Positions 707 to 22,096 are shown, numbered from the stretch's first letter. The stretch is 24,000 nucleotides of DNA from an uncultured Actinomycetota bacterium (GCA_963775175.1 CAVZHT010000001.1:2434940-2458939); one strand, 5' to 3'. Translations and numbers: made by a program. Notes: a model not told the origin generated them from the sequence alone.

Positions 707-3049
707 TCAGCGGTGCGCGGCCAGCGGCGTCGGCTGCGGGCCGTAGGCGGTCAGGAACCGGTCGCGGAAGCTGTCCATCGGCCACACCGGGGCCTTCGCG
801 CCCGGCAGCAGCCCGTCCGGCCAGCCCCACGCCGCGATCCGGTCCATGACCGACGGGTCGGCGCTGATCACGCTGATCGGCACGTCGTGGCTCGCCTGCG
901 TCCCGCTCACGATCGTGGCCGGCTGATGATCGCCGAGCACCACCAGCACCAGGTTCTTGTCGTGGAACGTCGTCACGAACGACACCAGCGTGCTGAGCGT
1001 GTACCGGATCGACTGCCCGTACGCCGCCTGCACATCGCTCGCGTGCTGCCACACCTCCTGCGGGGTGCGGCCCTGCTCGGGCATGCCCTCGAAGATCGTC
1101 CCGTCGCCGACGGCGTTCCAATCGACCGGGTGCGGCAGCGGCGCCCACGGCGTGTGCGACGAGACGAGGTCGATCTCGGCCATCACCGGGCGGTGGTGCG
1201 GCGCCGCGAGCTCGCGCTGCCGGAACGCCGACAGCACGTACTGGTCGGGCATCGCGGCGTAGCTGAACGACGGGCCGCGGTAGCCGACGTTGCGCCGGTC
1301 GTAGATCTTGTCGTAGTGGTAGAACGACCGGCCGACCGCCCAGTCCCGGTAGTTCGACGGCACGTCGTCGACCGTCCGCCACCCCGCCCGCTGGAACGCG
1401 CGGCTCAGCGTGAAGTGGTCGCCCTCGACGAGCTTGTCGTAGCGCTGCTGGCTGCTGATCCACAGCCCCGACTGCAGGGTGGAGTGCGCCAGCCAGCTGA
1501 TACCGCCGAACGTCGGTGACGTGAGGAACGCGCTGCGGGACGCGAAGCCGGCGGCCGCGAGGCTGCGGGTGCCGGACCTGAGCACGTCGTCCACCTGCGG
1601 CGAGAACGACGAACCCTGCACGGCCACCCTGCCGTAGCTCTCGACGAACGCCACGATGACGTCCTTGCCCCGCAGCCCGGTGAGCAGGTCGCTTCCCGGC
1701 TCCTGCGCGAACCGGTCGCCGGCCGAGAGCGCGTGGGAGAACCGGTGCTCGTCGGCGATCGCGGACCGGACGGCGTGGATCTGGTCGTAGGCCAGGCCGG
1801 CCGCGCTGGTGGAGGCGACCGGTGCCCCGGCGACGATCTGCACGCCGGAGACGGCGCAGACCACCCAGACCGCACCGAGCGCGCCGAGCGCCCGCAGCGA
1901 TCCGCGCCGGTGCCTGGCGGCGACCCGGCTCAGCCGCAGCATCGACAGCGGGACGAGGACGACGACGGCGATGCCGGCGAGCACCGCGGCGAGCTCGGCC
2001 ACGACGGCCCACCCCGGCCCGACCGAGTCGCGCAGCACGCCGGCCGCAGGCCCGAACGACCCCCAGTCCGACACCGGGTTGAACGGCCGGCCGAGCTGGT
2101 TGTAGAAGCCCACATCGAGGACCTTGACGACCCCCACCATCCCGAGCAGCAGCCCGACGAGCACCGCGAAGCCCGACCGCAGTCTCGTCGGCAGCACGAG
2201 GCCGGTGACGAGCACGACGAGGCCCTCGACCGGCACCCGGAGGAAGGCGCCCGGCGTCAGCTGTTCGAGGTGGTTCGGCGCCACCAGGGCGGCCCACACG
2301 AGCAGGAAGGCGAGGCCGGTGAGCACGAGAGGCAACGTCGACCGGTCCACGACGTCCTGGCCGCGGTGCCGCAGCCAGAGCCACCGCACGTCGTTTCCGA
2401 ACGACTCGGCGAGCAGCGCGAGCGCGGCGGCCACCGCCAGCACGATCAGCGGACCGGGCAGCAAGCCCGCCGCCGCCACGGTGAGCACGACCCCCTGGAT
2501 CGCCGCCACGACCTTGCACCAGTAGCGCGGCGGGGTCGGCTCGCGCAGCCACGACCATCGGCGGCCGGCCAGCCCGAACAGGTAGCGGGCCGCCCCGATC
2601 GCCAGCACCCACGGGCCCAGCAGCCGGGCGACGTACCCGCTGAGCACGAGGATCAGGAACGCGTCGACCTCCATGTCGAAGCGCGCCCCGTGCGGGGTGA
2701 CGGTGCCGGTGCGCCGCGCGATCCAGCCGTCCACCGCATCGAGGAGGAGCGCGGCGGAGGCCAGGGCGACCAGCGCGGCCACGGAGATGGACCGGTCCAG
2801 GGAGTCGGCGACCAGCGCGGCCACGCCGGCGGCGAGGTTGGCCCGGGCCAGCGTGACCCGGTCGGCCGGCCCGAACGCCGCGACGCCCGGCCGGGCGAAC
2901 GCGTACCGCACGACCGCGTTGACCCCGGCTGCCGCGACCGCGCCGGCGATCCAGCCCGCCGGCCCGAGCCCGACCGTCACCGCCAGCGCGGCGAGCAGCG
3001 TGATCGCGGCGGTCAGGCCCGCGACCGGGCCGGTTCGAACCGTCAGCAC
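707..3049 (-). CDS. Fusion protein: N-terminal CDP-alcohol phosphatidyltransferase, polytopic membrane linker, C-terminal LtaS/MdoB-type (sulfatase/alkaline-phosphatase superfamily) domain
   Basis: This is the C-terminal 780 codons of the tracked 1128-aa minus ORF. I place the start at GTG 3049, preceded by GGAGG with a 5-nt spacer. The CDP-OH transferase motif 'DGWIARRTGTVTPHGARFDMEVD' (DGxxAR..G...D...D) is present. Multiple hydrophobic helices follow. The C-terminal domain carries 'VIVAFVESYG', 'TSPTFGGISW' and 'VVLGDHQP', typical of LtaS/phosphoglycerol-transferase-like domains. The ORF part upstream of 3049 is antisense to the MDR gene and Arg/Pro/Gly-rich, so I excluded it. Confidence 0.8.
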   Translation of the reverse strand: MLTVRTGPVAGLTAAITLLAALAVTVGLGPAGWIAGAVAAAGVNAVVRYAFARPGVAAFGPADRVTLARANLAAGVAALVADSLDRSISVAALVALASAALLLDAVDGWIARRTGTVTPHGARFDMEVDAFLILVLSGYVARLLGPWVLAIGAARYLFGLAGRRWSWLREPTPPRYWCKVVAAIQGVVLTVAAAGLLPGPLIVLAVAAALALLAESFGNDVRWLWLRHRGQDVVDRSTLPLVLTGLAFLLVWAALVAPNHLEQLTPGAFLRVPVEGLVVLVTGLVLPTRLRSGFAVLVGLLLGMVGVVKVLDVGFYNQLGRPFNPVSDWGSFGPAAGVLRDSVGPGWAVVAELAAVLAGIAVVVLVPLSMLRLSRVAARHRRGSLRALGALGAVWVVCAVSGVQIVAGAPVASTSAAGLAYDQIHAVRSAIADEHRFSHALSAGDRFAQEPGSDLLTGLRGKDVIVAFVESYGRVAVQGSSFSPQVDDVLRSGTRSLAAAGFASRSAFLTSPTFGGISWLAHSTLQSGLWISSQQRYDKLVEGDHFTLSRAFQRAGWRTVDDVPSNYRDWAVGRSFYHYDKIYDRRNVGYRGPSFSYAAMPDQYVLSAFRQRELAAPHHRPVMAEIDLVSSHTPWAPLPHPVDWNAVGDGTIFEGMPEQGRTPQEVWQHASDVQAAYGQSIRYTLSTLVSFVTTFHDKNLVLVVLGDHQPATIVSGTQASHDVPISVISADPSVMDRIAAWGWPDGLLPGAKAPVWPMDSFRDRFLTAYGPQPTPLAAHR

Positions 3050-3127
3050 CCTTGCCTCCGTGTCTATGAGGTACAGGATTGGTACGGCGTGCACGAGCAC
3101 GCGGTTCAGCGAGAGGTCCGGACGGCG
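3050..3127. promoter_or_regulatory. Divergent promoter/operator spacer between the fusion gene and the MDR-led operon
   Basis: The 78-bp gap between the divergent start codons contains the least GC-rich stretch of this neighbourhood ('tgtctatgaggtacaggattggtacgg'). A direct GGTAC repeat sits at 3070-3074 and 3081-3085, 11 bp apart. I could not assign -10 or -35 elements with confidence. Confidence 0.35.
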
Positions 3128-4117
3128 ATGACGGCGGTGCGGCGAGAGGCCCGGGCGTTCTGGGTGCAGGCACCCGGTGCGGGTGAGATCCGGCCCGCGA
3201 CCCTCGCGCCGCCCGGCCCGGACGACGTCGTCGTCCGCACCCTGCACTCCGGCATCAGCCGCGGCACGGAGACGCTGGTGTTCCAAGGGCGCGTGCCGAA
3301 GGACCAGTACGCCGCGATGCGGGCGCCGTTCCAGGAGGGCGAGCTGCCCGGGCCGGTGAAATACGGCTACCTCAACGTCGGCGTGGTGGAGCACGGGCCG
3401 CGCCACCTGCAGGACCGCACCGTCTTCTGCCTGTACCCGCACCAGACGGCCTACGTGGTGCCGGCCCGGGCGGTGATCCCGGTGCCGGACGGCGTGCCGG
3501 CGTCGCGGGCCGTGCTCGCCGGGACGGTGGAGACGGCGGTCAACGCGCTGTGGGACGCCGCGCCGCTCGTCGGTGATCGGATCACCGTCGTCGGGGCCGG
3601 CATGGTCGGCTGCTGTGTCGCCCGGCTGCTCGCGCGGTACCCCGCCGTCGAGGTGACCCTCGTCGACATCGACGCCGGCCGGGCCGAGATCGCCGCGCAG
3701 CTGGGCGTCGGGTTCGCCCGGCCGGAGGACGCCACCGGCGAGCGCGACCTCGTCGTGCACACCAGCGCCACGTCGGCCGGGCTGCAGCTGGCGCTCGACC
3801 TGCTCGCGCCGGAGGGCACGGTCCTCGACCTCAGCTGGTACGGCGACGCCGACGTGACGCTGTCGCTGGGCGGCGCCTTCCACTCCCGGCGCCTCGGCAT
3901 CCGGTCCAGCCAGGTCGGGAAGGTCGCGCCCGCCCGCCGGGCCAACCGGACGACGACCGACCGGCTGGCCCTGGCCCTCGAGCTGCTGCGCGATCCGGCG
4001 TTCGACGCGCTGCTGACCGGCGCGTCGCCGTTCGAGGAGCTGCCCGACGTGCTGCCCCGCCTCGCCGACGGCCGCCGCCCGGCGCTGTGCCACAGCGTCA
4101 CCTACGGCGAGGGGTGA
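3128..4117 (+). CDS. MDR-superfamily (zinc-ADH-like) NAD(P)-dependent oxidoreductase, apparently lacking the catalytic-zinc Cys/His ligands
   Basis: ATG 3128 is in frame with the tracked ORF 1733..4117; only this 3' part has coding-like composition. A GroES-like N-terminus reads '[15 protein letters not shown]' where classical enzymes have 'CGxCxSDxH'. The Rossmann motif is '[15 protein letters not shown]'. Confidence 0.8.
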
Positions 4118-4122
4118 CCGGC

Positions 4123-4520
4123 ATGTTCAGCGTGACCGTCCGCGACCACATGATGATCGCCCACAGCTTCCGCGGCGAGGTCTTCGGCCCGGCCCAGCGG
4201 CTGCACGGCGCGACCTACGTCGTGGACGCGACCTTCCGTCGCGCCGATCTCGACGCCGACGGCATCGTGGTCGACATCGGCCGGGCCGCCGACCAGCTGC
4301 ACGCCGTGCTCGGCGAGCTGACCTACCGCAACCTCGACGACGAAGCGGCGTTCGCCGGCAGCAACACCTCGACCGAGGCCTGGCCCGGGTGATCGCCGAC
4401 CGGCTCGCCGGCCGCATCCACGCCGGCGCCCTCGGCGACGGCGCCGCGAGATCGCTGGCTCTCGCCGTCACGCTGCACGAGTCGCACATCGCCTGGGCGA
4501 GTTACGAGCGGACACTGTGA
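4123..4520 (+). pseudogene. 6-pyruvoyl-tetrahydropterin synthase (PTPS/QueD)-family gene interrupted by a 1-nt deletion-type frameshift (or sequencing error)
   Basis: Frame 1 (4123-4392) gives '[38 protein letters not shown]...NTSTEAWPG*'. The family C-terminus '[13 protein letters not shown]...[19 protein letters not shown]' continues in the -1 frame (4389-4520). Adding one C at the CC run 4379-4380 would give '...[15 protein letters not shown]...', which restores the conserved T-x-E-x-L-A-x-x-I pattern of the family. Confidence 0.7.
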
Positions 4521-5555
4521 ACCGCGTCCACGTGGTCGTGCCGGACGGCATCGACGACCCGCGCCGGCCGAGCGGCGGCAACGCCTACGACCGCCGGGTC
4601 TGCGCCGGGCTGACCGCCGCCGGGTGGGACGTGCGGGAGCACGGCATCCCGGGGGCGTGGCCGCATGCCGGAAGCCGCCGCGAACGCGGCCCTCGCTGTT
4701 GCCGTCGCGGCCGTTCCCGACCGGGCGACGGTCCTGGTCGACGGGCTGGTCGCGTCGGCGGCGCCGGCCGTGCTCGTCCCCCAGGCGGCGCGGCTCCGGC
4801 TGGTGGTCCTGGTGCACATGCCCCTCGACACCGGCGAGCCGGAACGGGCCGTCCTCTCCGCGGCGGCCGCGGTGATCACCACGAGCGCCTGGACGCGGCA
4901 GTGGCTGGTCGATCGCTACGGGCTCGCGCCGGGCACCGTGCACGTGGCCGTGCCCGGCACCGACCCGGCCGGCCTCGCCGCCGGGACCCCGACCGGGGGC
5001 GCGCTGCTCTGCGTCGGGGCGGTGAGCCCGCACAAGGGCCATGACGTGCTGGTCGCCGCGCTGGGCGCGCTGGTCGGCCGGCCGTGGCGCTGTGCCGTCG
5101 TCGGCCCGCTCGACCGCGACGTCGGCTTCGTCGCCCGGCTCCGATGCCGGGCCGTGGCCGACGGCATCGGCGCACGGATCGACTTCACCGGCTCGCGATC
5201 GGATGCCGACCTCGACCGCGCCTACGCGTCGGCCGACGTGCTCGTCCTCGCTTCGCGGGCCGAGACCTACGGCATGGTCATCACCGAGGCGCTGGCCCGC
5301 GGGCTGCCGGTGCTCGCCACCGCGGTCGGTGGCGTGCCCGAGGCGCTGGGGCGCACCGCGGACGGCCGGCGGCCGGGCATCCTCGTCCCGCCCGACGACC
5401 CCGGCGCCCTGGCCGGCGCGGTCGGCCGCTGGCTCGGCCAGGCCGACCTGCGCCACCGGTTGCGGCGCGCGGCCCGCGATCGGCGAGCGGCACTGACCGG
5501 CTGGCCCGTCACCACCGGCCGCGTCGAACGGGTCCTGAGCGGGGTGGCGGCGTGA
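4517..5555 (+). pseudogene. GT-B/GT4-type glycosyltransferase interrupted by a +1 frameshift near 4655-4667 (or sequencing error)
   Basis: GTG 4517 overlaps the PTPS-like stop (GTGA). The first ~49 codons ('[49 protein letters not shown]') have high GC3. After ~4664 GC3 collapses in that frame. Coding signal resumes in the tracked ORF 4665..5555 ('MPEAAANAAL...GRSRAETYGMVITEALARGLPVLATAVGGVPE', a GT1/GT4 C-terminal E-x7-E-like region). Removing one nucleotide (for example C4664) joins the halves as '...GAWPMPEAAANAAL...'. Confidence 0.7.
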
Positions 5556-6529
5556 CCGTCACCCTCGAGCGGCCGCCGGTCGACGCGACCCCGGCGGCGG
5601 ACCGGCCGCGGCGTCGGTGGCTTCTCGGGCTGCGCTGGGCCGGCGGGGCGGCGATCCTTTCCGCGCTGGTCTGGCGGGTCGGCACCGGGCCGATCGTCGA
5701 CGGGCTGCGGACGGTCAGCGTCGGCTCGCTGCTGGCCGCCGCGGCGATCGGCGCCGTCACCACCGCCGCCTCGGCGTGGCGGTGGACCCTCGTCGCCCGC
5801 GGCCTCGGCGTCGCCATCCCGTGGCCGGCCGCGTTCGCCGCCTACTACCGGTCGCAGTTCCTCAACACGACCTTGCCGGGCGGGGTGCTCGGCGACGTCC
5901 ACCGGGGGGTTCGGCACGGGCGCGCGGCCGGCGACGTCGGGCGGGGCCTGCGTGCGGTCGGCTGGGAGCGCGCGGCCGGGCAGGTCGTGCAGGCCGCGCT
6001 CGCGGTCGTGGTGCTGCTGGCGATGGCCTCGCCGGTCCGGGCGGCGATGCCGCTCGTCCTGGTGATCGTCACCGCCGCAGCCCTGCTGGTGGCCCGCGGC
6101 GCCCGGGCGCGGCCCCGGCCCGGCGGCTCACTGCTCGGGCGGACGCTGCGGGCGATCCGGGACGACCTCCGGCACGGGGTCCTCGCCCGGCGCACGTGGC
6201 CCGGCGTCACCGGCGCGTCGATCGTCGTCGTCGGCGGGCACGCGCTCACCTTCCTGGTCGCCGCCCGCACCGCCGGCTCGACCGGGTCGCTGGCCCAGTT
6301 GCTGCCCCTGGCGATGCTGGTGCTGCTGGCGATGAGCGTGCCGGCGAACGTCGGCGGCTGGGGGCCGCGGGAGGGCGCGGCGGCCTGGCTGTTCGCCGCC
6401 TCCGGCCTGGGCGCCGGGGCCGGGGTGGCGACGGCCACCGTGTACGGCGTGCTCGTGCTCGTCGCCAGCCTGCCCGGTGCGGCGGTGCTCGTGTGGCCCG
6501 ACCGGACCCGGGGGGCCGGCGATGGTTGA
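5552..6529 (+). CDS. Flippase-like / lysylphosphatidylglycerol-synthase-TM-region family (UPF0104-type) integral membrane protein
   Basis: GTG 5552 overlaps the GT stop (GTGA) and is in frame with the tracked ORF 5084..6529. The protein is polytopic and hydrophobic, with 'RWTLVARGLG...YYRSQFLNTTLPGGVLGDVHR' and 'NVGGWGPREGAAAW', characteristic of this family. Confidence 0.75.
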   Translation: MTVTLERPPVDATPAADRPRRRWLLGLRWAGGAAILSALVWRVGTGPIVDGLRTVSVGSLLAAAAIGAVTTAASAWRWTLVARGLGVAIPWPAAFAAYYRSQFLNTTLPGGVLGDVHRGVRHGRAAGDVGRGLRAVGWERAAGQVVQAALAVVVLLAMASPVRAAMPLVLVIVTAAALLVARGARARPRPGGSLLGRTLRAIRDDLRHGVLARRTWPGVTGASIVVVGGHALTFLVAARTAGSTGSLAQLLPLAMLVLLAMSVPANVGGWGPREGAAAWLFAASGLGAGAGVATATVYGVLVLVASLPGAAVLVWPDRTRGAGDG

Positions 6530-7232
6530 GCGCCCCTACACGGTGCTGAGCTGCGGCATGTCGATCGACGGCTATCTCGACTGCACCTCGGTGAAGCGGC
6601 TGCGGCTCTCGAACGACGCCGACTTCGACCGGGTCGATGCGGTGCGCGCGACCTGCGACGCGATCTTCGTCGGGGCGGCCACCGTCCGCAACGACAACCC
6701 GCGCCTGCTCGTCCGCTCGGCCGCCCGGCGGCAGCGGCGCGTCGCCCGGGGCCTGCGCCCGTCACCGATCAAGGTGACGGTGACCGGCCGGGCCGAACTC
6801 GACGCGCAGGCCGCCTTCTTCGTCACCGGCGACACCGAGAAGCTGGTGTACTGCGAGAGCTCGAAGCTCGCCGAGGCCCGCGACCGCCTGGGCACCGTCG
6901 CGACCGTCGTCGACGGCGGCCGGCCCGTCGAGATGACGGCGATCACCGAGGACCTGCGGGCCCGCGGCGTCGAGCGGTTGATGGTCGAGGGCGGCGGTTC
7001 GCTGCACACCCAGTTCCTCACCGCCGACCTCGCCGACGAGCTGCATCTCGTCGTCGCCCCGTTCTTCGTCGGCGACTCCCGGGCCCGCCGCTTCGTCGAC
7101 GACGGCCGCTTCCCGTGGAACCCGCGGCGGCGGGCGACGCTGGCCGGGGTCCGGCAGATCGGCGACGTCGTCCTGCTGCGCTACGCGCTGTCGGCGCGGT
7201 TCTGCCCGGACGAGTTGTGGGAGCAGGCGTGA
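6522..7232 (+). CDS. RibD C-terminal-domain / dihydrofolate-reductase-like NADPH-dependent reductase
   Basis: ATG 6522 overlaps the upstream stop by 8 nt (ATGGTTGA). The translation 'PYTVLSCGMSIDGYL...DAIFVGAATVRNDNPRL...LMVEGGGSLHTQFL...DELHLVVAPFFVG' matches the RibD_C pattern. Confidence 0.8.
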   Translation: MVERPYTVLSCGMSIDGYLDCTSVKRLRLSNDADFDRVDAVRATCDAIFVGAATVRNDNPRLLVRSAARRQRRVARGLRPSPIKVTVTGRAELDAQAAFFVTGDTEKLVYCESSKLAEARDRLGTVATVVDGGRPVEMTAITEDLRARGVERLMVEGGGSLHTQFLTADLADELHLVVAPFFVGDSRARRFVDDGRFPWNPRRRATLAGVRQIGDVVLLRYALSARFCPDELWEQA

Positions 7233-7254
7233 CACCCGGCCGCGAGCTGGGCCG

Positions 7255-7728
7255 CTAACCGACCCGCAGCCGCGGCGGGGCCGGCTGCCCGTCGGCGTCG
7301 CGTCGTGCGGTCTCGGCCCAGGCGATGAGGCCGTCGACGTCGATGCCGTGGGGCGCCGACTCGCGGTAGGGGAGCACCCGCTCGACGGCCCGGGTGAGCA
7401 GGGCGCGGGCGCCGGCCGGGTTGCCGCGCAGCGCGTGCGTGAGGCCGACCGCGAGCTGGGCCAGGCCCTGCCACAGATCCCGCTCCCCGGCCGGCGCGCC
7501 CTTCCAGGCCGCCTCCAGCACCTCGTGGGCCTGGAACGGGAAGCCCTCGTCGAGCAGCCGCTGGGCCTCGGTCAGGGTGTCGTCCGGGCCGAGGTCGAGG
7601 GCCTCCGGCACGCCGGGCACGCCGGCCGCGCCCGGGGCGAGCGGGCGGCCGAGGGCGTCCCGCGGGCGGGCGTTGCGCGGCCGCCCCCGCGCGTCCCGAT
7701 CCCGATCCGCGTCCGTCACGGCGATCAT
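7255..7728 (-). CDS. DUF309-family protein
   Basis: I chose the internal ATG (7728) of the tracked ORF 7255..7908. The translation 'RDARGRPRNARPRDALGRPL...EAQRLLDEGFPFQAHEVLEAAWK...LWQGLAQLAVGLTHALRGNPAGA' is the typical DUF309 pattern. The ORF upstream of 7728 overlaps the neighbouring divergent gene. Confidence 0.75.
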   Translation of the reverse strand: MIAVTDADRDRDARGRPRNARPRDALGRPLAPGAAGVPGVPEALDLGPDDTLTEAQRLLDEGFPFQAHEVLEAAWKGAPAGERDLWQGLAQLAVGLTHALRGNPAGARALLTRAVERVLPYRESAPHGIDVDGLIAWAETARRDADGQPAPPRLRVG

Positions 7729-7765
7729 TCTCCGCCTTGAACGCCCCGGCAGGGATGATGGACCG

Positions 7766-8998
7766 ATGGCGGACACGCGGCGGGGGCGCCGGCTCGTCTC
7801 GATGCTGACCGGCCTGCTCGCGGCCGTCCTGCTCGTCGCCGGCTGCAGGTCGTCATCGCGGCCCACATCGAACCGGGCGCCCTCGACGCCGCGGACGACC
7901 GCGTCCACGTCGTCGCGCCCGGCCGCGGCGCTGCCCTCGGCGCGCCCGGTGGCGGTCGCGCCACTACGCCGCGGCGAACGGTGGGTGAGCCTGCCGATGC
8001 CGGGTGGCAGCTACCGGCCGCAGGCCCCGGCCGGCGGCACGGACGACTACCGCTGCATCCTGCTCGACCCGAAGCTGACCACCGATGCGTTCCTGTCCGG
8101 CGTGGTGCTGCGCCCCGGCAACCCGAAGCTCGTCCACCACGCGATCCTGTACCGCGTCGACCCGGCCCAGGTGGCGGCGGCGCGGGCGAAGGACGCCGCC
8201 GACCCCCGGCTCGGCTGGTCGTGCTTCGGCGGCCCGGAGCTGCCGAGCACCGGCGGGGTACTCGGTGGCCTCGACTCGGCGCCGTGGGTGGCGGCCTGGG
8301 CGACCACCGGCGGCGAGCAGCACTTCGCCGCCGGCACCGGGCAGCGGCTGGCCGCCGGCAGCCGGGTGATCCTGCAGATGCACTACAACCTGCTCAACGG
8401 CGGCGGCACCGACAGCACGTCGGTCGCGTTGCGGGTTGCCCGCACCGGTGTCGGGCTGAAGCCGCTGCAGACGCTGCTGCTCCCGGCGCCGGTCGAGCTG
8501 CCCTGCCCGGCCAGCCAGCACGGCCCGCTCTGCGACCGGACGGCCGCCGTCCTGGACGTCGAGCGGCGGTTCGGGGTCGACGCCGGCGCGACGATCGGCG
8601 GCCTGCAACTGCTCTGCGGCGGCTCGCTGACCCATCCGCGGGCCGGGGTCACGCAGTCGTGCCGCCGGCCGGTGCCCGGTCGGATGGTCATCCGGGCGGT
8701 GGCCGGGCACATGCACCTGCTCGGGCGCAGCATCCGGATCGACCTGCTGCGGGCCGACGGCACCGATCGCCGGCTGCTCACCGTCCCCGTTTGGGACTTC
8801 GACGACCAGCGGGCGACCGTGCTCGCGAAGCCGGTCACCGCCCGGCCCGGAGACGCGCTGCGGGTCACCTGCACGCACGACGCCACGCTGCGCGAGAAGC
8901 TGCCGGAACTGCGCAAGCTGGCGCCCCGTTACGTCGTGTGGGGTGAGGGCTCGTCGGACGAGATGTGCCTCGGGATCGTCACCTACACGCTGACCTGA
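7766..8998 (+). CDS. Copper type-II monooxygenase (PHM/DBH-like) lipoprotein
   Basis: ATG 7766 is in frame with the tracked ORF 7394..8998. The signal peptide has the lipobox 'LLVAGC' (Cys codon 7844-7846). All ligands of the two Cu sites are present: CuH 'LVHHAILY' (8135-8140) plus 'LQMHYN', and CuM 'GHMHLLG' (8708-8716) plus 'SSDEMCLG' (Met 8963-8965). Confidence 0.8.
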   Translation: MADTRRGRRLVSMLTGLLAAVLLVAGCRSSSRPTSNRAPSTPRTTASTSSRPAAALPSARPVAVAPLRRGERWVSLPMPGGSYRPQAPAGGTDDYRCILLDPKLTTDAFLSGVVLRPGNPKLVHHAILYRVDPAQVAAARAKDAADPRLGWSCFGGPELPSTGGVLGGLDSAPWVAAWATTGGEQHFAAGTGQRLAAGSRVILQMHYNLLNGGGTDSTSVALRVARTGVGLKPLQTLLLPAPVELPCPASQHGPLCDRTAAVLDVERRFGVDAGATIGGLQLLCGGSLTHPRAGVTQSCRRPVPGRMVIRAVAGHMHLLGRSIRIDLLRADGTDRRLLTVPVWDFDDQRATVLAKPVTARPGDALRVTCTHDATLREKLPELRKLAPRYVVWGEGSSDEMCLGIVTYTLT

Positions 8999-9019
8999 GT
9001 GCCGCGCGAACTTGAGAGC

Positions 9020-9039
9020 TGGGGCACAGGCTCGCCCCA
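9020..9039 (+). terminator. Possible stem-loop after the monooxygenase gene
   Basis: TGGGGC (9020-9025) pairs with GCCCCA (9034-9039) across an 8-nt loop, followed by 'tacggtcggttt'. The U-tract is weak, so this may only be a processing or attenuation structure. Confidence 0.25.
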
Positions 9040-9078
9040 TACGGTCGGTTTGACGATCACGCGGGCAAGGAGCAGTGC

Positions 9079-10170
9079 ATGGCGAACTCGACGCGCCGAC
9101 CGCCGACGAAGCGAGCGCCGGCCCGGCCGTCCGCGCCGCCCGCCCCCGAGCGGCGCCCCGTCCCGCCCGCGCTCGCCGCGCTGCAGCGGGACCCGCGCTG
9201 GATCCTGCTGCCGCTGCGGGCCTACCTCGGGTTCACGTTCCTCTACGCCGGGTTGTCCAAGGTCGGTGGCCACAGCTTCCTGGACGCCTCGTCGCCCACG
9301 TCGATGCACGCCACGCTGGTGGCGGTGCGCGGGCAGAGCCCGATCGGCGGGCTGCTCGGCCCGGTCGAGCAGCACTCGTACGCGTTCGGTCTGCTCATGG
9401 CCCTCGGCGAGCTGGCCGTCGGCATCGGCACCGCGCTCGGACTGTTCGCCCGGGTCGCGGCCACCGGCGGAGCCCTGATCTCGCTATCGCTCTTCCTGAC
9501 GGTGAGCTGGAACGCGACGCCGTGGTACACCGGCGCCGACATCGTCTACCTCTTCGCGTTCACGCCGATCCTGCTCGGCGGCGCCGGCCCGGTCTCGGCC
9601 GACGGCTGGCTGGCCCAGCAGCGGGCGCGCAGCACCGGCCGTGACGCGGTTGCCGAGGACCGCACCCGCCGGGCCGTCCTCGGCGGCATCGCCGGCATCG
9701 CCGGCCTGCTGGCCTTCGCGGTGGCCAGCCTGGTGCGCAAGGGAACGGGCGGGAGCCCGAGCGTCCAGGCCGGCGGCAACCAGACGGGCAGCGGGCCGAC
9801 CGGCGGGGCGCCGGCCGCGAGCGCGCCCGCCCCGAGCGGGTCGACGACCCCGGCGCGCGCGGCCACCGGCGGCAAGCCGATCATCGCCGCCGCCGCCGTC
9901 CCGGTCGGCGGCGCGGCCCCGGCCACGGATCCCAAGAACGGCGACCAGATCTTCGTCCTGCAGCTGAACGCCGGCGAGTTCACCGCGCTGGACAGCGCCT
10001 GCCCGCACCAGGGCTGCCCGGTCAGCTTCATCTCGAAGTCGCAGGGCTTCGTCTGCCCCTGCCACGGCTCGACCTTCGACGCCACCGGCGCGGTGACCCA
10101 GGGCCCGGCCGCGACCGGGCTGGCCAAGATCCCGGTCGCGAAGTCGGGCAGCGAGATCGTCCGGAAGTGA
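9079..10170 (+). CDS. DoxX-family membrane domain fused to a C-terminal Rieske [2Fe-2S] domain
   Basis: AAGGAG lies 6 nt before ATG 9079. The N-terminal 'LLPLRAYLGFTFLYAGLSK' plus four hydrophobic helices is DoxX-like. An internal twin-arginine-like anchor 'RTRRAVLGGIAGIAGLLAFAVA' (about 9661-9726) follows, then a Gly/Pro/Ala/Ser linker. The Rieske motifs 'CPHQGC' and 'CPCHGS' come at the C-terminus. Confidence 0.85.
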   Translation: MANSTRRPPTKRAPARPSAPPAPERRPVPPALAALQRDPRWILLPLRAYLGFTFLYAGLSKVGGHSFLDASSPTSMHATLVAVRGQSPIGGLLGPVEQHSYAFGLLMALGELAVGIGTALGLFARVAATGGALISLSLFLTVSWNATPWYTGADIVYLFAFTPILLGGAGPVSADGWLAQQRARSTGRDAVAEDRTRRAVLGGIAGIAGLLAFAVASLVRKGTGGSPSVQAGGNQTGSGPTGGAPAASAPAPSGSTTPARAATGGKPIIAAAAVPVGGAAPATDPKNGDQIFVLQLNAGEFTALDSACPHQGCPVSFISKSQGFVCPCHGSTFDATGAVTQGPAATGLAKIPVAKSGSEIVRK

Positions 10171-10550: not shown

Positions 10551-10619
10551 TGGCCGCCATTAGCGCCACGTGACCGTGGCGGCCGGACCGGCCGGCCGGC
10601 GCGCCGGATTGTCATTTTC
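10551..10619 (+). terminator. Candidate intrinsic terminator region after the small ORF
   Basis: There are alternative stems: GGCCGCCA (10552-10559) with TGGCGGCC (10577-10584), or CGCCACG (10564-10570) with CGTGGCG (10575-10581) across a tgac loop. The palindrome CCGGCGCGCCGG (10596-10607) follows, then 'attgtcatttt'. Confidence 0.35.
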
Positions 10620-10786
10620 GCGGGCCGTTCGTCCCTGGGTCGGTCTCCGCCGCGGGGCTAACTTCGCCCGTGACGCAGCCGGCCGGACGCGTCGATCGGG
10701 GGCCCGCCTGCCCCCGGAGTGACGCGGGCCGCGGTCGCGCCGCCGGCACGGTCCCGCGCCGGATCCGCGTCCTGGAGGGAGATCAC

Positions 10787-12076
10787 GTGTCCCGTCCCCG
10801 CCGTCGCAAGATCCTCGTTCTGGGCCTCGCGGCCGCCGCGATCGCGTGGCTGGTCGGCTCTGGGGCCGGAGCCGCGTCCGCCTCCGCGCACCCCCATCGC
10901 AGCCATACGCTCGTCGTCGCGGCCGGGGCGAGCACCACCAGCCACACCGCCGACCGCGGAAACCGCCACTCCTGCCGGCACGCCGGCTTCACCACCATCG
11001 GTGCCGCAGTGGCCGCGGCGTCGCCCGGCGACACCGTGCTGGTCTGTCCGGGCACCTACGCCGAGGACGTGCTCGTCGGCAAGAGCCTGCACCTCGTCGG
11101 CCGGCACGCGACGATCGACGCGACCGGGCGGGAGAACGCCCTGCAGATCGTCACGTCGTGGGTCTCGGTCAGCGGCTTCCGCCTCGCCAACGCGAACGGG
11201 GAGGGGCTGCTCGTCGGCGTCGACACCCTCGGCGACGCCGGGCTGCTGACCTCGCAGGTCCTCACCCACGTGCGGGTCGACCACGTTGCGGCCGTCGACA
11301 ACAACAAGGGCTTCAACGGCACCGAGAACAGCAACTGCAAGTACCCGGGCGACTGCGGCGGCGGCATCCACCTGCAGGTCACCAAGTGGTCGTCGGTGCG
11401 TGACTCGGTCGTGGTCGGCAACTCCGACGGCATCCTGGTGACCGACGACTACGGGCCGGCCTCGCACAACCTGGTCGAAGGCAACTACGTCAGCGACAAC
11501 ACGACCGAGTGCGGCATCGTCCTGCCGTCCCACAACCCCGGTGCGGTCACCTTCGACCCGCAGACCTTCGCGGTGACCGGGCGCAACCCGGACGTCGGCG
11601 GCGTCTTCGACAACGTCGTCAAGCACAACATCACGGTGCGCAACGGCACCGCGAAGGCCCCGCCCGAGTTCGGCGGCGGCGGCAGCGGCTCCGGCATCGG
11701 GATCTTCGGGTCGGGTCCGGGCACCGGCGCCTACGACAACGTGGTCGAGGACAACTACGCCGCAGGCAACGGCCTGGCCGGGTTCACCATCCACGCGCAC
11801 CTGCCCGGCGGCGAGGACGTCAACGGCAACCGGATCGTCGGCAACCTGTTCGGCACCAACAACACCGGCGGGGACGGCTACGACGGGCCGCCGGGGCCGA
11901 TCGACTTCCAGACGACCGGCATCGCCGTGTACTCGGCGCCGACGGTCCGGATGACCATCGAACACAACCGCATCTTCGACAACGAGATCGGGATCTGGTT
12001 GAGCAACACCGTCACCGCGCACGGGCTGAACCACAACCGGTTCTTCCACGTGACGACCCGGGTCGTTCGCGGCTGA
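10787..12076 (+). CDS. Secreted right-handed parallel beta-helix repeat protein (pectin-lyase-fold/NosD-like)
   Basis: GGAGGGA lies 6 nt before GTG 10787, in frame with the tracked ORF 10670..12076. The signal peptide is 'RRRKILVLGLAAAAIAWLVGSGAGAASASA'. Repeated 'N..(V/I).(G/D)N' beta-helix rungs are visible ('VVGNSDGILV', 'VEGNYVSDN', 'VVKHNITVRNG', 'VEDNYAAGNG', 'IVGNLFGTNN', 'IEHNRIFDNEIGIW'). Confidence 0.8.
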   Translation: MSRPRRRKILVLGLAAAAIAWLVGSGAGAASASAHPHRSHTLVVAAGASTTSHTADRGNRHSCRHAGFTTIGAAVAAASPGDTVLVCPGTYAEDVLVGKSLHLVGRHATIDATGRENALQIVTSWVSVSGFRLANANGEGLLVGVDTLGDAGLLTSQVLTHVRVDHVAAVDNNKGFNGTENSNCKYPGDCGGGIHLQVTKWSSVRDSVVVGNSDGILVTDDYGPASHNLVEGNYVSDNTTECGIVLPSHNPGAVTFDPQTFAVTGRNPDVGGVFDNVVKHNITVRNGTAKAPPEFGGGGSGSGIGIFGSGPGTGAYDNVVEDNYAAGNGLAGFTIHAHLPGGEDVNGNRIVGNLFGTNNTGGDGYDGPPGPIDFQTTGIAVYSAPTVRMTIEHNRIFDNEIGIWLSNTVTAHGLNHNRFFHVTTRVVRG

Positions 12077-15677: not shown

Positions 15678-16298
15678 GTGGCCGTAGACAATCAACTCCA
15701 GCTCGACCGACTCGCCCGCTCGTTCGCCGCCGTGGGCGACTTGATCGACGCGATCCAACCCGGCCAGTGGTGCGCGCCGACGCCATGCCTGGACTGGACC
15801 GTGCAGCGGCTCGTCGAGCACCTGGTCGGCAAGAATCTCGTGTTCACTGCGGTGCTCGCCGAGCGTCCGCTGCCGCAGCGCGGTGACGGCATGCCGAGCG
15901 ACCAACTCGCCCCCGCCTACCGCGCATCGGCCGCCGAACTGCTCGACGGGTTCGCGCAGCCCGGCGTTCTCGATCGCGTCCACCAGGGCCCGCTCGGGGC
16001 CGCCACCGGCGCCGAACGGTTGAAGATCCGCAGGTACGACCTGCTGGGCCACGGCTGGGACCTCGCTCAGGCTCTCGGGCGACCGGCAAAGCTGCCGGAG
16101 GACGCGGTGACGGATTCGCTGGCCTTCGCCCGCGCGGATGGGCGGGCGGTACGGCCCGGCGGCGGGTGCTTCGGCCCGCCCCGGCCCATCGACGACGCCG
16201 CCCCGGCCATCGAGCGGCTGGCCGCGTTCCTGGGCCGCGACGTGCCGGCCAACCGGACGATCAGACTAGCTCGAGGTCGCGGACCCCGAGCTCGGTGA
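15678..16298 (+). CDS. DinB-like / mycothiol-maleylpyruvate-isomerase N-terminal-domain family protein (actinobacterial uncharacterised subgroup)
   Basis: The pattern 'W..PTPC.DWTV..L..HL' is visible in 'QWCAPTPCLDWTVQRLVEHLVG', and the C-terminal region reads 'DLLGHGWDLAQALG'. I prefer GTG 15678 because of the upstream GAGAGGTGG; the tracked start is 15663. The last ~12 codons have poor GC3 because they overlap the convergent activase gene. Confidence 0.75.
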   Translation: MAVDNQLQLDRLARSFAAVGDLIDAIQPGQWCAPTPCLDWTVQRLVEHLVGKNLVFTAVLAERPLPQRGDGMPSDQLAPAYRASAAELLDGFAQPGVLDRVHQGPLGAATGAERLKIRRYDLLGHGWDLAQALGRPAKLPEDAVTDSLAFARADGRAVRPGGGCFGPPRPIDDAAPAIERLAAFLGRDVPANRTIRLARGRGPRAR

Positions 16299-16986
16299 GT
16301 TGCGTGCCGTAGGCCGCCAGGCGGTCCGGGTCGGCTTCGTTCCAGATCCGGGCGGCCCCGCGGGCGCCGTGCCGGCGAAAGCCGATCACCTTGATCCGCA
16401 TGGCCGGGTCGACGTCGAGCAGCCACCGGACGGTGCGCTCCAGGGTCGCCGGGCCGTCGTTCACCCCGGGGACGAGCAGTAGCCGGGTCTCGTACAGCTT
16501 CCCGGCCGCGGCGGCCTGCCGGATCGCGGCCAGGACGGGCGCGTTCTCCGCCCCGGTGAGCTCGCGATGGGCGGCCGGGTCGAGGGCCTTCAGGTCGAGC
16601 ATCACACCGTCGGTCACCGGCAGCAGCGACGACCACACCTCGGCCGGGGCCGCGCCGTTGCTGTCGATGAACCGGGTGAGGTGACGCAGCTGCCGGTCCG
16701 CGGCCAGGGCCGCGAAGAAGGCACCGACGAACGGCGCCTGCAGCGTCGCCTCGCCGCCGGAGACCGTGACGCCCGACAGGAACGGCGCGACCGCCCGCAC
16801 CTCCGCCACCAGCTCGCCCACCTCGACAGTGCGGGCGCGCGGCGTCTTCACCGGGATCGTCTGCGGGTTGTGGCACGCGAGGCAGTTGAAGTTGCAGCCC
16901 TGCAGGAAGATCACGAACCGGTTGCCCGGCCCGTCCACCCACGAGAACCGGATGACGTCAGCGACGAGCGCCGGCGGCGGTCTCAA
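16261..16986 (-). CDS. yjjW: Glycyl-radical enzyme activating protein (radical SAM, YjjW-type)
   Basis: The N-terminus 'SWVDGPGNRFVIFLQGCNFNCLACHN' carries the CxxxCxxC radical-SAM cluster motif in the PFL-activase context, and 'TVSGGEATL' is the SAM-binding motif. The gene lies immediately downstream of, and overlaps, the glycyl-radical enzyme gene. The only start codon available is TTG 16986, a 29-nt overlap, so the start is uncertain. Confidence 0.85.
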   Translation of the reverse strand: MRPPPALVADVIRFSWVDGPGNRFVIFLQGCNFNCLACHNPQTIPVKTPRARTVEVGELVAEVRAVAPFLSGVTVSGGEATLQAPFVGAFFAALAADRQLRHLTRFIDSNGAAPAEVWSSLLPVTDGVMLDLKALDPAAHRELTGAENAPVLAAIRQAAAAGKLYETRLLLVPGVNDGPATLERTVRWLLDVDPAMRIKVIGFRRHGARGAARIWNEADPDRLAAYGTQLTELGVRDLELV

Positions 16987-18514
16987 TGCTGATCACCCGC
17001 TTCGGCGCCCGGTCGGTGACATGGCTGTTCGCCACCGACCCGGCGGCCAGGTACGTGCTGGCGTGCCGGGCACCCTCGGCCGGCAGGGCGGCGAGATCGG
17101 ACTTGCGCACGAGGTAGCCGGTGATCCGGATGAAGTCGTTGCTGTCGAGGTTGAACGTGAAGTCCCGCAGCCCGACCTTGAACGCGCCGCGGATCACATC
17201 GACGACCGCCCGCGGGTTGCGCCGCGCGGTGTCGTCGAAGGCGAGGACGTCGCTGATCCCGGAGGCGAAGCGCTTGTGGTGCGGGGCCACCGTCAGCAGG
17301 TGCTCGACCAGCGGTGGCTCGCTGCCGACCGGTATGCGGGTACCGGCGGTGACGTCGTGGTCGAGATCGATGCCGGACTGCGAGTGCAGGAAGCAGCGGC
17401 CGGCGTTGCCCGCGCAGTAGGGCATCGGCCGCTCGGCGACCAGGGTGGCGACCCGGTCGATGATCCGGTACGACAGCTCGTTCGCGGCGTGGTCGTGGCC
17501 GTAGCGGGCTTGCGGCGAGCCGGCCCGTTCCATCAGCAGGTCGACCGCCTCGGCGAGGCCGAAGATGCCGAACATCGCCGAGAATGCGTCGAGCGAGATC
17601 AGCCCCTCATGGACGAGCCAGCTGTGCTCGTAGAACCGCGCCTGCTCGACGAGATGCCGGATGCGGGATTCGGCGAGCTCGGCGGTCAGCTCCACGTAGG
17701 TGGGCAACGAGTCGGCGAGGAACGAGTCGGCGTCCCCGTCGTGGGCGACGACGGCCTGCTTGAGGTTGAGCCGGACGAGCGTGTGCGACCCGCCGCCGAT
17801 CCGCAGCGAGTTGTAGCAGCTCACCGCCGCGTACCGCTCGCCGAGGTCGTGGGTCATCATCGGGTGGGCGACGAAGTGCGGCTTGCCGCACTCGAAGACG
17901 GTGCGGACGGCGTCCAGCAGGTAGTCGTCCGGCGTCCGCTCCGGGTCGACCCGCAGGGTCAGGTTCGGCACCACCTGCAACAGCTCGCGTTCGAGGCGCA
18001 GCACCGTCCGGCCGACCCGGCTGTCGTCGGGGCCCAGGTCGGTGTGCGTGAAGGCGTCCGGGAACATCCGGTCGAGGCTGATCCAGAACAGCCGCAGCCG
18101 CCGGTACAGCTCGTCGTCGCCGACCCCGTCGAGGTAGGGCTCGAGCAGCGCGTCCAGATCGCCCAGGTACACCGGATAGCCGGTGATGGACGGGACGTGG
18201 GTGTAGAGGATCAGCAGGAAGGCCAGCGCCTCCTCGAGATCGCCCGCGGGCGGCAGCTCGAGGAACGCCGAACCGTTGCGAAGCGCCACCGCGTAGTCGG
18301 GCAGGACGTAGCGGGGCCGGTAGGGCGCGTTGCCCTCGTACATGTCGCAGATGACGCGCTTGTCCAGCGCCTGCGCGCAGGCGTCCGAGACCGGGGGCGG
18401 ATCCACGGCATTCTCCGCCAGTGCCGCCAACTGGTGCAGGCGCTGCCGGTAGGTGAGCGCCGGGTCGTCGACCACGCGGCGCACGAGGCAGCGGAGCTCG
18501 AAGGTCTCCATCAC
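16958..18514 (-). CDS. yjjI: YjjI-family (DUF3029-type) short glycyl-radical enzyme
   Basis: 518 aa. The C-terminal glycyl-radical fingerprint is 'FIRITGYLVRK' (Gly codon 17117-19, matching RVxG[FWY]). Its size is well below PFL-type enzymes. It is paired with a dedicated activase, as in the E. coli yjjI-yjjW arrangement. The start is GTG 18514 or ATG 18511. Confidence 0.85.
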   Translation of the reverse strand: MMETFELRCLVRRVVDDPALTYRQRLHQLAALAENAVDPPPVSDACAQALDKRVICDMYEGNAPYRPRYVLPDYAVALRNGSAFLELPPAGDLEEALAFLLILYTHVPSITGYPVYLGDLDALLEPYLDGVGDDELYRRLRLFWISLDRMFPDAFTHTDLGPDDSRVGRTVLRLERELLQVVPNLTLRVDPERTPDDYLLDAVRTVFECGKPHFVAHPMMTHDLGERYAAVSCYNSLRIGGGSHTLVRLNLKQAVVAHDGDADSFLADSLPTYVELTAELAESRIRHLVEQARFYEHSWLVHEGLISLDAFSAMFGIFGLAEAVDLLMERAGSPQARYGHDHAANELSYRIIDRVATLVAERPMPYCAGNAGRCFLHSQSGIDLDHDVTAGTRIPVGSEPPLVEHLLTVAPHHKRFASGISDVLAFDDTARRNPRAVVDVIRGAFKVGLRDFTFNLDSNDFIRITGYLVRKSDLAALPAEGARHASTYLAAGSVANSHVTDRAPKRVISIETAAGARR

Positions 18515-18667
18515 CTCAGGCTAGGCACCGGCGACCGGGCCGGTAGGGCCCAAGGTCCAGGCGAAACCGGGCCGGGCCGAGATGCTCATCCGCGCCGTTC
18601 CCCTGCCGATACCTGAATTGCGGGCCTCGTGCGGGGTGCCCGCTTCGTGCCGATGGAGGGAGCGCGC
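18515..18667. promoter_or_regulatory. Divergent promoter region between the glycyl-radical operon and the c-di-GMP gene
   Basis: This is a 153-bp non-coding gap between divergent starts. I did not recognise an operator; no FNR/CRP-like TTGAT-N4-ATCAA site was seen. Confidence 0.35.
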
Positions 18668-21600: not shown

Positions 21601-22096
21601 CGACCCGGGCCGGCTCACCCTCGAGATCACCGAAGGCGTGATCATGCGCCGGCCCGAGGCGGCGCGACGCCTGATGCAGGCGATGCACGCGGCCGGGCTG
21701 CGCCTGCACATCGACGATTTCGGAACGGGCTACTCGTCGCTGGAGACCCTGCACAAGTTCCCGGTCGACGCGCTGAAGATCGACCGCTCGTTCGTCGCCG
21801 GACTCGCGACCGGCGACCACAGCGACGAGCTGGTCCGCGCCATCATCGCCATGGGCGCGGCCCTCGACCTCACCGTCGTGGCCGAGGGGGTCGAGACCGA
21901 CCTCCAGCTCCGCTTCCTGCGCCAGGCCGGCTGCGAGGCGGCCCAAGGGTTCCGGTTCCGGCCGGCCGTTGCCGGGGACGAGGTCGCGGCGATCCTCGGC
22001 ACCGTGTTCTGCACCGAGCAACGCCGCGCGGGCGCCCGCCGCCCCGCCACCGCGCACCGCGGACGGCCCGAGCGGGCCGACACCGTCCCGGTCTGA
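18668..22096 (+). CDS. Multidomain c-di-GMP turnover protein: LacI-type ligand-binding core (no HTH), GAF-like region, PAS, GGDEF and EAL
   Basis: GGAGGGAG lies 5-7 nt before GTG 18668; the tracked ORF starts at 18629. The N-terminal ~280 aa align by eye with LacI/PurR sugar-binding cores ('RIGFVGNLG', 'TAVFAATDRNAIGLMRTLAEAGLGMPRDLAVIGFDD', 'PTLSSVRQ'). The PAS domain includes 'NDGLWEWDL...HPDD...EYRVR..DG..RWV'. The GGDEF domain has an intact 'GGDEF' (20978-20992) and an RxxD I-site 'RGVD' five residues upstream. The EAL domain has 'EALVRW', 'NLS', 'EITE', 'DDFGTGYSS', 'KIDRSF', 'EGVET' and 'QGF'. Confidence 0.85.
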   Translation: MAEPGTVLALTPSIGGYYFGELLTGLNREIAAAGGRLLLVQTPPAGARDDGVECSTFSTPVAWSHIDGVVSVTTAARGTYLQQLRDAGKPVVLVSTRMPDFEAPLAVPDNRGGARAAVEHLISHGHTRIGFVGNLGQPDIRDRHAAYLQVLRAHGLRAEPGFLYRAANNDWTGGEEAARALLAGRDRPTAVFAATDRNAIGLMRTLAEAGLGMPRDLAVIGFDDVEAAAFSTPTLSSVRQRFDDVGALAGRMLLERIRGRSVAFREHVLPTSILTLRGSCGCATDAMGVGIEHLDPLPGATAAPRRWDELQATIVRSLYTGHRAIDGPARRAVRATVGEIERVVRAGDAATAEELLSVTDSINDLSAHPVVQRRIVGAVLDHLRSAPGGEPSAAAATQLIAALWRLQVRAFLQQVESTQTALEEQYQVDAGLLDGQADARDLAWLTGTHVRAGVLALWEGGPSSGRLRIAGHYDPHGLLADPPGDVTTPQQFPPPALLDAAGTPDGGVCIVVPVASAEDDWGLLAVIGEINTASTLETYRHWATQLCASFQEEKLQEAVRDSEQRYALAARATNDGLWEWDLGTDAFYMSERCIELVGLDRADAERRLDQWRARVHPDDVGEMEQAMGRVLSGSQQTVSVEYRVRAGDGTHRWVLSRALSVRSADGGAERLVGSLSDIHDRRSLEEQLRANALHDELTGLPNRRLFLARLEHAVELQKRFATPFAVIFLDLDGFKAINDSLGHQMGDRLLAAVGDRIQGELRGVDTGARFGGDEFAILLHDATHDDVLRVARRVQSAVREVIAIDGHEFVIGASLGVTTSDVDYSCAEDVLRDADTAMYHAKETERGTLAFFDETMHARALNQLRLNAELRRALDDGQFEVHFQPIVDLVSGRADEFEALVRWRHPERGLVPPGEFLPLMAETGLIVPLGQWVIDEVCRRLAEWGPAVAGVSVNLSDREFWHADLLAHLSACLTRHDVDPGRLTLEITEGVIMRRPEAARRLMQAMHAAGLRLHIDDFGTGYSSLETLHKFPVDALKIDRSFVAGLATGDHSDELVRAIIAMGAALDLTVVAEGVETDLQLRFLRQAGCEAAQGFRFRPAVAGDEVAAILGTVFCTEQRRAGARRPATAHRGRPERADTVPV

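Follow-up and report, generated by a model that had tools for sequence, protein, structure and literature searches.

A predicted lipoprotein of the PHM/DBH-type copper monooxygenases in an uncultured actinobacterium and its bacterial relatives

Introduction

The question raised by this locus is whether an uncultured actinobacterium carries, on the outer face of its cytoplasmic membrane, a copper monooxygenase of a kind known from eukaryotes, and, if it does, from where such an enzyme would draw its electrons and on what it would act. The locus is a gene at positions 7766-8998, on the plus strand, of a stretch of 24,000 nucleotides from an uncultured Actinomycetota bacterium (GCA_963775175.1 CAVZHT010000001.1:2434940-2458939); the whole of this stretch is called the window below. 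The textbook examples of non-coupled binuclear copper monooxygenases are peptidylglycine alpha-hydroxylating monooxygenase (PHM; EC 1.14.17.3) and dopamine beta-monooxygenase (DBH), both of them studied in eukaryotes. In a 2022 analysis of the fold, PHM is described as widespread in eukaryotes (PMC8812541). An earlier note on this DNA had read the gene as an exported bacterial member of the same family. The explanation that accounts best for the whole of the observations, and one that we hold to be quite probable, is that the gene encodes an extracytoplasmic, lipid-anchored non-coupled binuclear copper monooxygenase of the PHM/DBH superfamily.

Results

Family assignment

As judged from its sequence and its predicted fold, the product of this gene is a homologue of the two-domain copper monooxygenases of the PHM/DBH type. 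Its C-terminal part is recognised by the Pfam model Cu2_monoox_C (PF03712) with 31.2 bits against a cut-off of 23 bits (E=1.8e-7, residues 308-407), and the same model matches 92 of 95 relatives. Two AlphaFold2 models were obtained, one from 32 close homologues with a mean predicted local distance difference test score (pLDDT) of 76, and one from 95 diverse relatives with a mean pLDDT of 89. In the second model, 320 residues have a pLDDT of at least 90, and all blocks of ten residues past residue 60 average more than 90, save for residues 161-170, which average 66. For each of the models, the best 31 matches returned from the PDB by Foldseek are exclusively PHM and DBH (E=2e-14 to 1e-9), with target-normalised TM-scores to these proteins of up to 0.69, and the matches that come after them, with E>5e-6, are to beta-sandwich and jelly-roll proteins of distant relationship or none. 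The superposition of a predicted structure, which the earlier note had suggested as a check, has in this way come out in its favour with both models. Both superpose best on the citrate structure of H108A-PHM (PDB 6ALA, TM 0.68-0.69). This entry may be the structure with a large interdomain rearrangement reported in PMC6123673; if so, the predicted domain arrangement would be more closed than that of wild-type PHM.

Copper ligands and their conservation

The sequence of the PHM catalytic core was taken from its PDB copy, in which 44 has to be added to the chain index to obtain rat PAM numbering, and was aligned to the window protein in two independent ways, by hhalign against the profile of the close homologues and by MAFFT --add into a family alignment of 105 sequences. 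The identities and numbering of the ligands in PHM and DBH follow PMC6123673 and PMC4846438. The correspondences on which both alignments agree are the following.

H124 and H125: PHM H107 and H108, CuH ligands, both alignments
H206: PHM H172, CuH ligand, both alignments
H315 and H317: PHM H242 and H244, CuM ligands, both alignments
M400: PHM M314, CuM ligand, both alignments
Y95: PHM Y79, conserved non-ligand, both alignments
Q204: PHM Q170, conserved non-ligand, both alignments
E399: PHM E313, conserved non-ligand, both alignments
C369 and C401: PHM C293 and C315, a disulfide in PHM, both alignments

All six copper ligands announced by the earlier note are present, and each of them pairs residue for residue with a ligand of PHM. 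A misalignment of these His and Met residues with the PHM ligands, which had been named as the observation that would speak against the family, was looked for, and the ligands do align. By HMMER, the same residues of the window protein align with H262/H263, H412/H414 and M487 of DBH. The proposal that the cysteines are placed for disulfides stands in part: C97 pairs with PHM C81, and C369 and C401 with their PHM counterparts, in both alignments, whereas C153 is paired by MAFFT --add with PHM C126, which would keep the C81-C126 disulfide, and by hhalign with C114.

The six ligands are invariant in the 32 close homologues, as are the eight cysteines other than that of the lipobox (Cys27). Conservation was also followed in a broad set of 104 full-length representatives with identities of 27-60% to the window protein. 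In this set the ligands are conserved at 96-99% (H124, H125 and H206 at 99% each; H315, H317 and M400 at 96-98%), Y95, Q204 and E399 at 98-99%, and C97, C369 and C401 at 100%. Roughly 25 positions are conserved at 90% or more, and these are mostly counterparts of PHM catalytic residues (the ligands, Y95, Q204 and D398/E399) together with four cysteines, the rest being Gly, Pro, Trp, Phe and Asp. Given the score of the Pfam C-domain, the restriction of the first 31 Foldseek matches to PHM and DBH, and the conservation of the ligands in the 104 representatives, the family match is not a product of chance.

Reading frame, domain layout and export

The gene and the parts of its product are placed in the window as follows.

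7766..8998, plus strand: gene for the PHM/DBH-like two-copper monooxygenase, a predicted lipoprotein; complete, 410 codons and TGA
7766..7846, plus strand: predicted signal peptide, read from the sequence, with an Arg-rich n-region (R5, R6, R8, R9), a hydrophobic core and the lipobox LLVAGC with the predicted lipidated Cys27 (7844-7846)
7847..7966, plus strand: low-complexity tether rich in Pro, Ser, Thr and Ala, residues 28-67, predicted to be disordered
7973..8488, plus strand: N-terminal jelly-roll domain, residues about 70-241, with the CuH site, H124/H125 (8135-8140) and H206 (8381-8383), and with Y95, Q204, C97 and C153
8498..8650, plus strand: insert of about 50 residues, 245-295, without PHM equivalent and left unaligned to PHM by hhalign, with helices 258-269 and 271-283 in the predicted model and with C247, C256 and C284
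8651..8995, plus strand: C-terminal jelly-roll domain, residues 296-410, with the CuM site, H315/H317 (8708-8716) and M400 (8963-8965), and with E399 and C369/C401; PF03712 covers residues 308-407

The product of 410 amino acids begins MADTRRGRRLVSMLTGLLAAVLLVAGC, and its translation is uninterrupted. The gene is real and its frame clearly codes for protein: the G+C content is 0.95 at third codon positions, against 0.73 at first and 0.58 at second positions, and homologues reach identities of up to 84%. The ATG at 7766 is the sole plausible start, the preceding codons holding no in-frame start; AGGGA lies 11-15 nucleotides 5' of it, and the starts of homologues coincide with it in the alignment of close homologues. 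The motifs that the earlier note had pointed out were all found again exactly where it had placed them: the lipobox at residues 22-27 (7829-7846), HH at H124/H125, LQMHYN at residues 203-208 with its histidine at H206, HMH at H315-M316-H317, and the methionine of DEMC at M400. The protein has nine cysteines in total, namely Cys27 of the lipobox and eight more.

Export as a lipoprotein, likewise claimed from the start, is consistent with several features of the N-terminus. Within the lipobox, LVAGC fits the pattern [LVI][ASTVI][GAS]C. Of 26 close homologues that possess an N-terminus, 24 have a cysteine aligned with that of the lipobox, and a helix is predicted over residues 4-24, in line with a hydrophobic segment behind the Arg-rich n-region; the RR pair of this region is kept in several close homologues, not in all. 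In the tether, residues 26-50 have a pLDDT below 50, and its length and sequence vary among homologues. The cysteines of the insert are found in about 77% of the broad family, and a further cysteine, C299, sits just past it. A Pfam scan of the window protein found no DOMON and no PAL/NHL domain, and NCBIfam holds no model for it.

Size and distribution of the family

The description of the family in the earlier note as one of animal enzymes proved too narrow. An exhaustive HMMER scan of representatives of clusters at 50% identity returned 4,365 clusters with E<=1e-3, of which 340 have E<=1e-30, and a scan of one genome per species found the family in at least 555 species. A word-indexed search gave 4,750 relatives among 8,000 scored candidates. 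Among the best 80 of these species nearly all are labelled Actinomycetota, including Nanopelagicales, Dactylosporangium, Actinoplanes and Nonomuraea, and a few have generic or doubtful labels. Culturable carriers of the gene include Dactylosporangium sp. NBC_01737, Actinoplanes sp. NPDC051411 and Nonomuraea aurantiaca. The closest relatives of the window protein belong to Jatrophihabitantaceae and to other Actinomycetota, which agrees with the actinobacterial origin assigned to it earlier. One close homologue with a RefSeq WP_ accession bears the UniRef name 'monooxygenase', and a collection of plasmids gave a single, unannotated match, on a replicon of 11.85 Mb from Nonomuraea gerenzanensis. 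The window gene is unexceptional within its very large bacterial branch, which the databases label by domain and which apparently nobody has characterised.

Cytochrome c fusions and the electron donor

An indication of how the branch may obtain its electrons comes from its longer members. Relatives with identities of 37-43% carry an N-terminal mono-haem c-type cytochrome, or a YceI domain followed by the cytochrome, ahead of the monooxygenase core. A CxxCH motif precedes the core in 70 of the 104 representatives, the consensus of the family alignment in this region being PI....C..CH..GG...MPPW, and Pfam recognises Cytochrome_CBB3 in 41 and YceI in 14 of the 95 relatives. The window protein is one of a subgroup of lipoproteins in Actinomycetota that are haem-less. 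Given that most members of the branch carry a c-type cytochrome domain of their own, the simplest reading is that a haem protein, and not ascorbate, would supply the branch with electrons, and that the actinobacterial subgroup would receive them from a separate donor.

The genomic contexts of three cytochrome-fused relatives all differ from one another and share no clue to the substrate. One of them, at 1773-9634 (+) of locus L085, is a string of genes on the same strand for SDR, P450, ferredoxin, a SnoaL-like protein, an unknown protein of 419 residues, the fusion protein P0181, an M8 (leishmanolysin) peptidase and DUF6457, and it resembles a cluster for the oxidation of a small molecule.

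Gene neighbourhood

The two genes that border the monooxygenase gene in the window are these.

7255..7728, minus strand: DUF309 protein, divergent upstream neighbour, likely start 37 nucleotides from the monooxygenase start
9079..10170, plus strand: DoxX/DoxD membrane domain fused to a C-terminal Rieske [2Fe-2S] domain; adjacent, not a conserved partner

The downstream neighbour could itself be the donor, in that membrane quinol would reduce its exported Rieske domain and this would feed CuH. The gene begins 80 nucleotides 3' of the monooxygenase gene, on the same strand and with a good Shine-Dalgarno sequence (AAGGAG), and no terminator was detected in the 80-nucleotide spacer; the folding of this spacer (z = 0.58) and a scan for terminators and promoters were uninformative. 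Both Rieske boxes, CPHQGC (10000-10017) and CPCHGS (10054-10071), are intact, and the domain (residues about 270-363) comes after an internal twin-arginine segment, RTRRAVLGG (9661-9687), the position of which would fit an export that brings the domain to the lipoprotein's side of the membrane. Relatives of the monooxygenase, moreover, use a fused one-electron carrier. What speaks against this arrangement is its absence from the other loci compared. The neighbourhoods of 80 related loci were compared, with flanks of up to 6 kb on each side, and by tblastn neither DoxX nor Rieske nor the NosD-like protein of the window occurs near the monooxygenase in any of them, relatives at 70-79% identity included. 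Homologues of the DoxX-Rieske protein are numerous (929 matches, with the JGI name thiosulfate dehydrogenase [quinone] large subunit), and the four of their loci that were looked up in other genomes have no copper monooxygenase nearby. In 60 loci the genes that follow the monooxygenase gene are of mixed kinds, and many are convergent. The neighbours found by clustering of all flanking open reading frames and by a Pfam census of 60 downstream genes were heterogeneous or housekeeping ones, with a SpoU-type methylase, a CDP-alcohol transferase and GcvH/FHA/MerR among them. For these reasons the electron supply by the DoxX-Rieske protein is considered unlikely, and the link to the downstream Rieske gene drawn in the earlier note was not supported.

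A conserved Rieske partnership, as a candidate for the family at large, was rejected on the 80 loci and on the reverse look-up of the four. Likewise, none of the neighbours in the window (DoxX, Rieske, NosD-like, RibD_C, DUF309, hydrolase and PAC2) adjoins the gene in the 80 related loci by tblastn. DUF309 is found near the gene in one of these loci, about 5 kb off, and is not a conserved neighbour. The monooxygenase gene behaves as a stand-alone gene, and its Rieske neighbour is specific to this genome. On the upstream side, the gap of 37 nucleotides leaves hardly any room for two promoters, which suggests leaderless or overlapping transcription.

A possible partner is seen in one lineage. 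Directly 3' of the monooxygenase gene in 13 loci of the Nanopelagicales type (e.g., L061:6957-7766 (+) and L051:7239-7988) lies a gene whose product has about 250 residues, is predicted to span the membrane at its ends and matches no Pfam model, and in several of these loci it overlaps the stop codon of the monooxygenase gene by about 36 nucleotides. This protein is possibly a partner of the monooxygenase in that lineage; no homologue of it was found in the window.

Further features were observed in the window. The gene at 10670-12076 (+), 500 nucleotides 3' of the DoxX-Rieske gene, encodes a parallel beta-helix protein that is NosD-like, has a hydrophobic N-terminus rich in Arg and is probably secreted; a terminator-like hairpin lies between the two genes at 10592-10607. 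A YjjI-like glycyl-radical enzyme (PF11230, E=6e-196) is encoded at 16958-18514 (-) and adjoins a radical-SAM/Fer4_12 protein, likely its activase, at 16261-16986 (-); the enzyme is of an oxygen-sensitive type and is found here in a high-GC actinobacterial genome. At 18629-22096 (+) lies the gene of a signalling protein of 1155 residues, in which PAS, GGDEF and EAL domains are joined to a periplasmic-binding-protein domain of the LacI type. The segment 707-4117 holds two very long overlapping open reading frames on opposite strands, the minus one of 1128 residues with a CDP-alcohol phosphatidyltransferase match at its residues 413-556, and the plus one of 794 residues with weak matches.

Discussion

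Substrate and the comparison with peptide amidation

The same fold leaves room for a second explanation, in which the protein would be a true peptidylglycine alpha-hydroxylating enzyme that initiates the amidation of C-termini, be it of secreted bacterial peptides or of the stem peptides of the cell wall. In its fold, its copper sites and its SSDEMC motif the protein is the same in kind as PHM, and the extracytoplasmic location is one where peptides and peptidoglycan occur. In PHM, the carboxylate and backbone of the C-terminal glycine of the substrate are held by R240, N316 and Y318 (PDB 1OPM). In both the hhalign and the MAFFT --add alignment R240 corresponds to Ala313, at a variable position where members of the family have A, L, G, F, T or M, and N316 and Y318 are left without counterpart given that Leu-Gly-Ile comes after Cys401. 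Because these carboxylate-binding residues are missing, a glycine-extended peptide is an improbable substrate, and the assay with such peptides that the earlier note had in mind would be a poor bet. Moreover, no PAL/NHL lyase was found in the protein, in the scanned open reading frames of the window or downstream of the gene in 60 related loci, nor were genes for peptide precursors or for ribosomally synthesised and post-translationally modified peptides found among the scanned open reading frames and the conserved neighbours. As read from its sequence, the window protein is unlikely to be a peptide-amidating enzyme, and its action as a true PHM on secreted or stem peptides is less probable still than a supply of electrons by the DoxX-Rieske protein.

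Least probable is that the lipoprotein binds or buffers copper or serves as a chaperone for it, or that it is an inactive pseudo-enzyme, and in either case no hydroxylase: exported His/Met copper sites also serve copper-handling proteins, and the literature searched gave no known activity for any bacterial member, but the counterparts of PHM Y79, Q170 and E313 are kept at 98-99% across the family, and the cytochrome c fused to most relatives suits redox turnover and not storage.

Proposed mechanism

We return, then, to the lipid-anchored copper monooxygenase as the preferred explanation. What the analysis shows is the fold, the alignment of the ligands, the conservation, the export signal, the domain fusions and the want of a conserved partner gene; that copper is bound and O2 activated, which way the electrons flow, what kind of donor provides them and to which class the substrate belongs is what we infer. 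An N-terminal lipid anchor and the disordered linker, of about 40 residues, would keep the enzyme on the outer side of the cytoplasmic membrane. As in PHM and DBH, CuH (His124, His125 and His206) would take single electrons from an outside donor and hand them across the interdomain cleft, and Tyr95 and Gln204, which correspond to Tyr79 and Gln170 of PHM, may assist this transfer from CuH to CuM. At CuM (His315, His317 and Met400), again as in the known enzymes, O2 would be bound and activated and a C-H bond of the bound substrate hydroxylated. The donor is probably a redox protein, which for the haem-less actinobacterial lipoproteins would have to be a separate one.

Several results weigh against this explanation and lower the confidence placed in it. 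The N-terminal domain is recognised by Pfam Cu2_monooxygen (PF01082) with 16.6 bits against a cut-off of 30 bits, so that, of the two Cu2_monooxygenase models proposed for a search in the earlier note, that of the C-domain scores above its cut-off and that of the N-domain below; the match does fall in the expected region (residues 114-208), at E<=0.01 the model matches 70 of the 95 relatives, P0158, a relative, reaches 39.2 bits with it, and the domain is covered by the evidence from fold and motifs. In a sequence search against solved structures human DBH is found alone and weakly, with E=0.078 for the single sequence and 8e-4 with a profile of 32 sequences, and PHM is not retrieved by the sequence search of PDB chains, being reached through fold comparison and profile alignment. 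A scan of the window protein found no CxxCH haem motif, and no conserved neighbouring redox gene was found by clustering of the flanking open reading frames or in a Pfam census of 60 downstream genes. A donor other than ascorbate, as the earlier note had supposed, is supported indirectly by the c-type cytochrome fused to most of the distant relatives, and for the haem-less subgroup it is a donor that we purely infer. Finally, no characterised bacterial PHM/DBH-like enzyme was found in the literature searched, which leaves subscription journals mostly uncovered, so that the absence of such an enzyme is unproven.

With regard to the family as a whole, it can be proposed, tentatively and with considerable doubt, that a large prokaryotic branch of non-coupled binuclear copper monooxygenases runs on protein carriers of the respiratory type in place of ascorbate, with a fused cytochrome c in most members and a separate donor linked to the membrane in the haem-less actinobacterial lipoproteins, and hydroxylates a lipid, an isoprenoid or another substrate of the cell envelope at the cell surface. 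This class of substrate is hinted at by the fusions with YceI and by the presence of the gene amid housekeeping genes in the freshwater Nanopelagicales with their small genomes.

The significance of these observations lies with the family, that is, with its substrate and its likely ascorbate-independent supply of electrons, and not with this copy of the gene. Given its abundance in Actinomycetota of soil and freshwater, the family probably carries out an oxidative reaction at the cell surface that has gone unrecognised. The cytochrome c fusions offer a testable answer to how PHM/DBH-like enzymes may operate free of ascorbate, and a soluble bacterial homologue that holds the full catalytic apparatus in a single polypeptide would be a tractable model for the long-range transfer of electrons from CuH to CuM.

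Comparison with known systems

The PHM core of PAM (rat; PDB 1PHM, 1OPM and 6ALA) is the closest known system by fold (TM 0.69, E about 1e-12), at an identity of about 16-18%. It shares with the window protein the two jelly-roll domains, a CuH site of three His and a CuM site of His-x-His and Met, the counterparts of Y79, Q170 and E313, and the motifs VHH, LQxHY, HxHxLG and SSDEMC. Unlike PHM, the window protein is bacterial and predicted to be lipid-anchored, is without a PAL lyase domain and has the additional helical insert of about 50 residues with three cysteines, whereas C47-C186, C114-C131 and the partner of C334 of PHM are absent from it. By analogy with its cytochrome-fused relatives, ascorbate is also unlikely to be its reductant, which would be a further difference from PHM.

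The catalytic core is shared as well with DBH, tyramine beta-monooxygenase and MOXD1 (EC 1.14.17.1; human DBH, PDB 4ZEL). DBH is the top match by sequence among solved structures (profile E=8e-4) and has the best E-value in Foldseek (2e-14), and Arg240 of PHM is missing both in DBH and in the window protein. The window protein differs from DBH in having neither a DOMON nor a dimerisation domain, its N-terminus being a predicted signal peptide and a disordered tether, and nothing about it indicates an amine substrate.

A third comparison is with the bacterial members fused to cytochrome c or to YceI and cytochrome c, such as P0138, from a Gaiellaceae genome, and P0181, which JGI names 'polyisoprenoid-binding protein YceI'. 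These differ by their N-terminal mono-haem CxxCH domain, with or without a YceI domain for the binding of lipids or isoprenoids, neither of which is part of the window protein. With it they share a core that is 37-43% identical, all of the copper ligands and the same Cys-rich insert.

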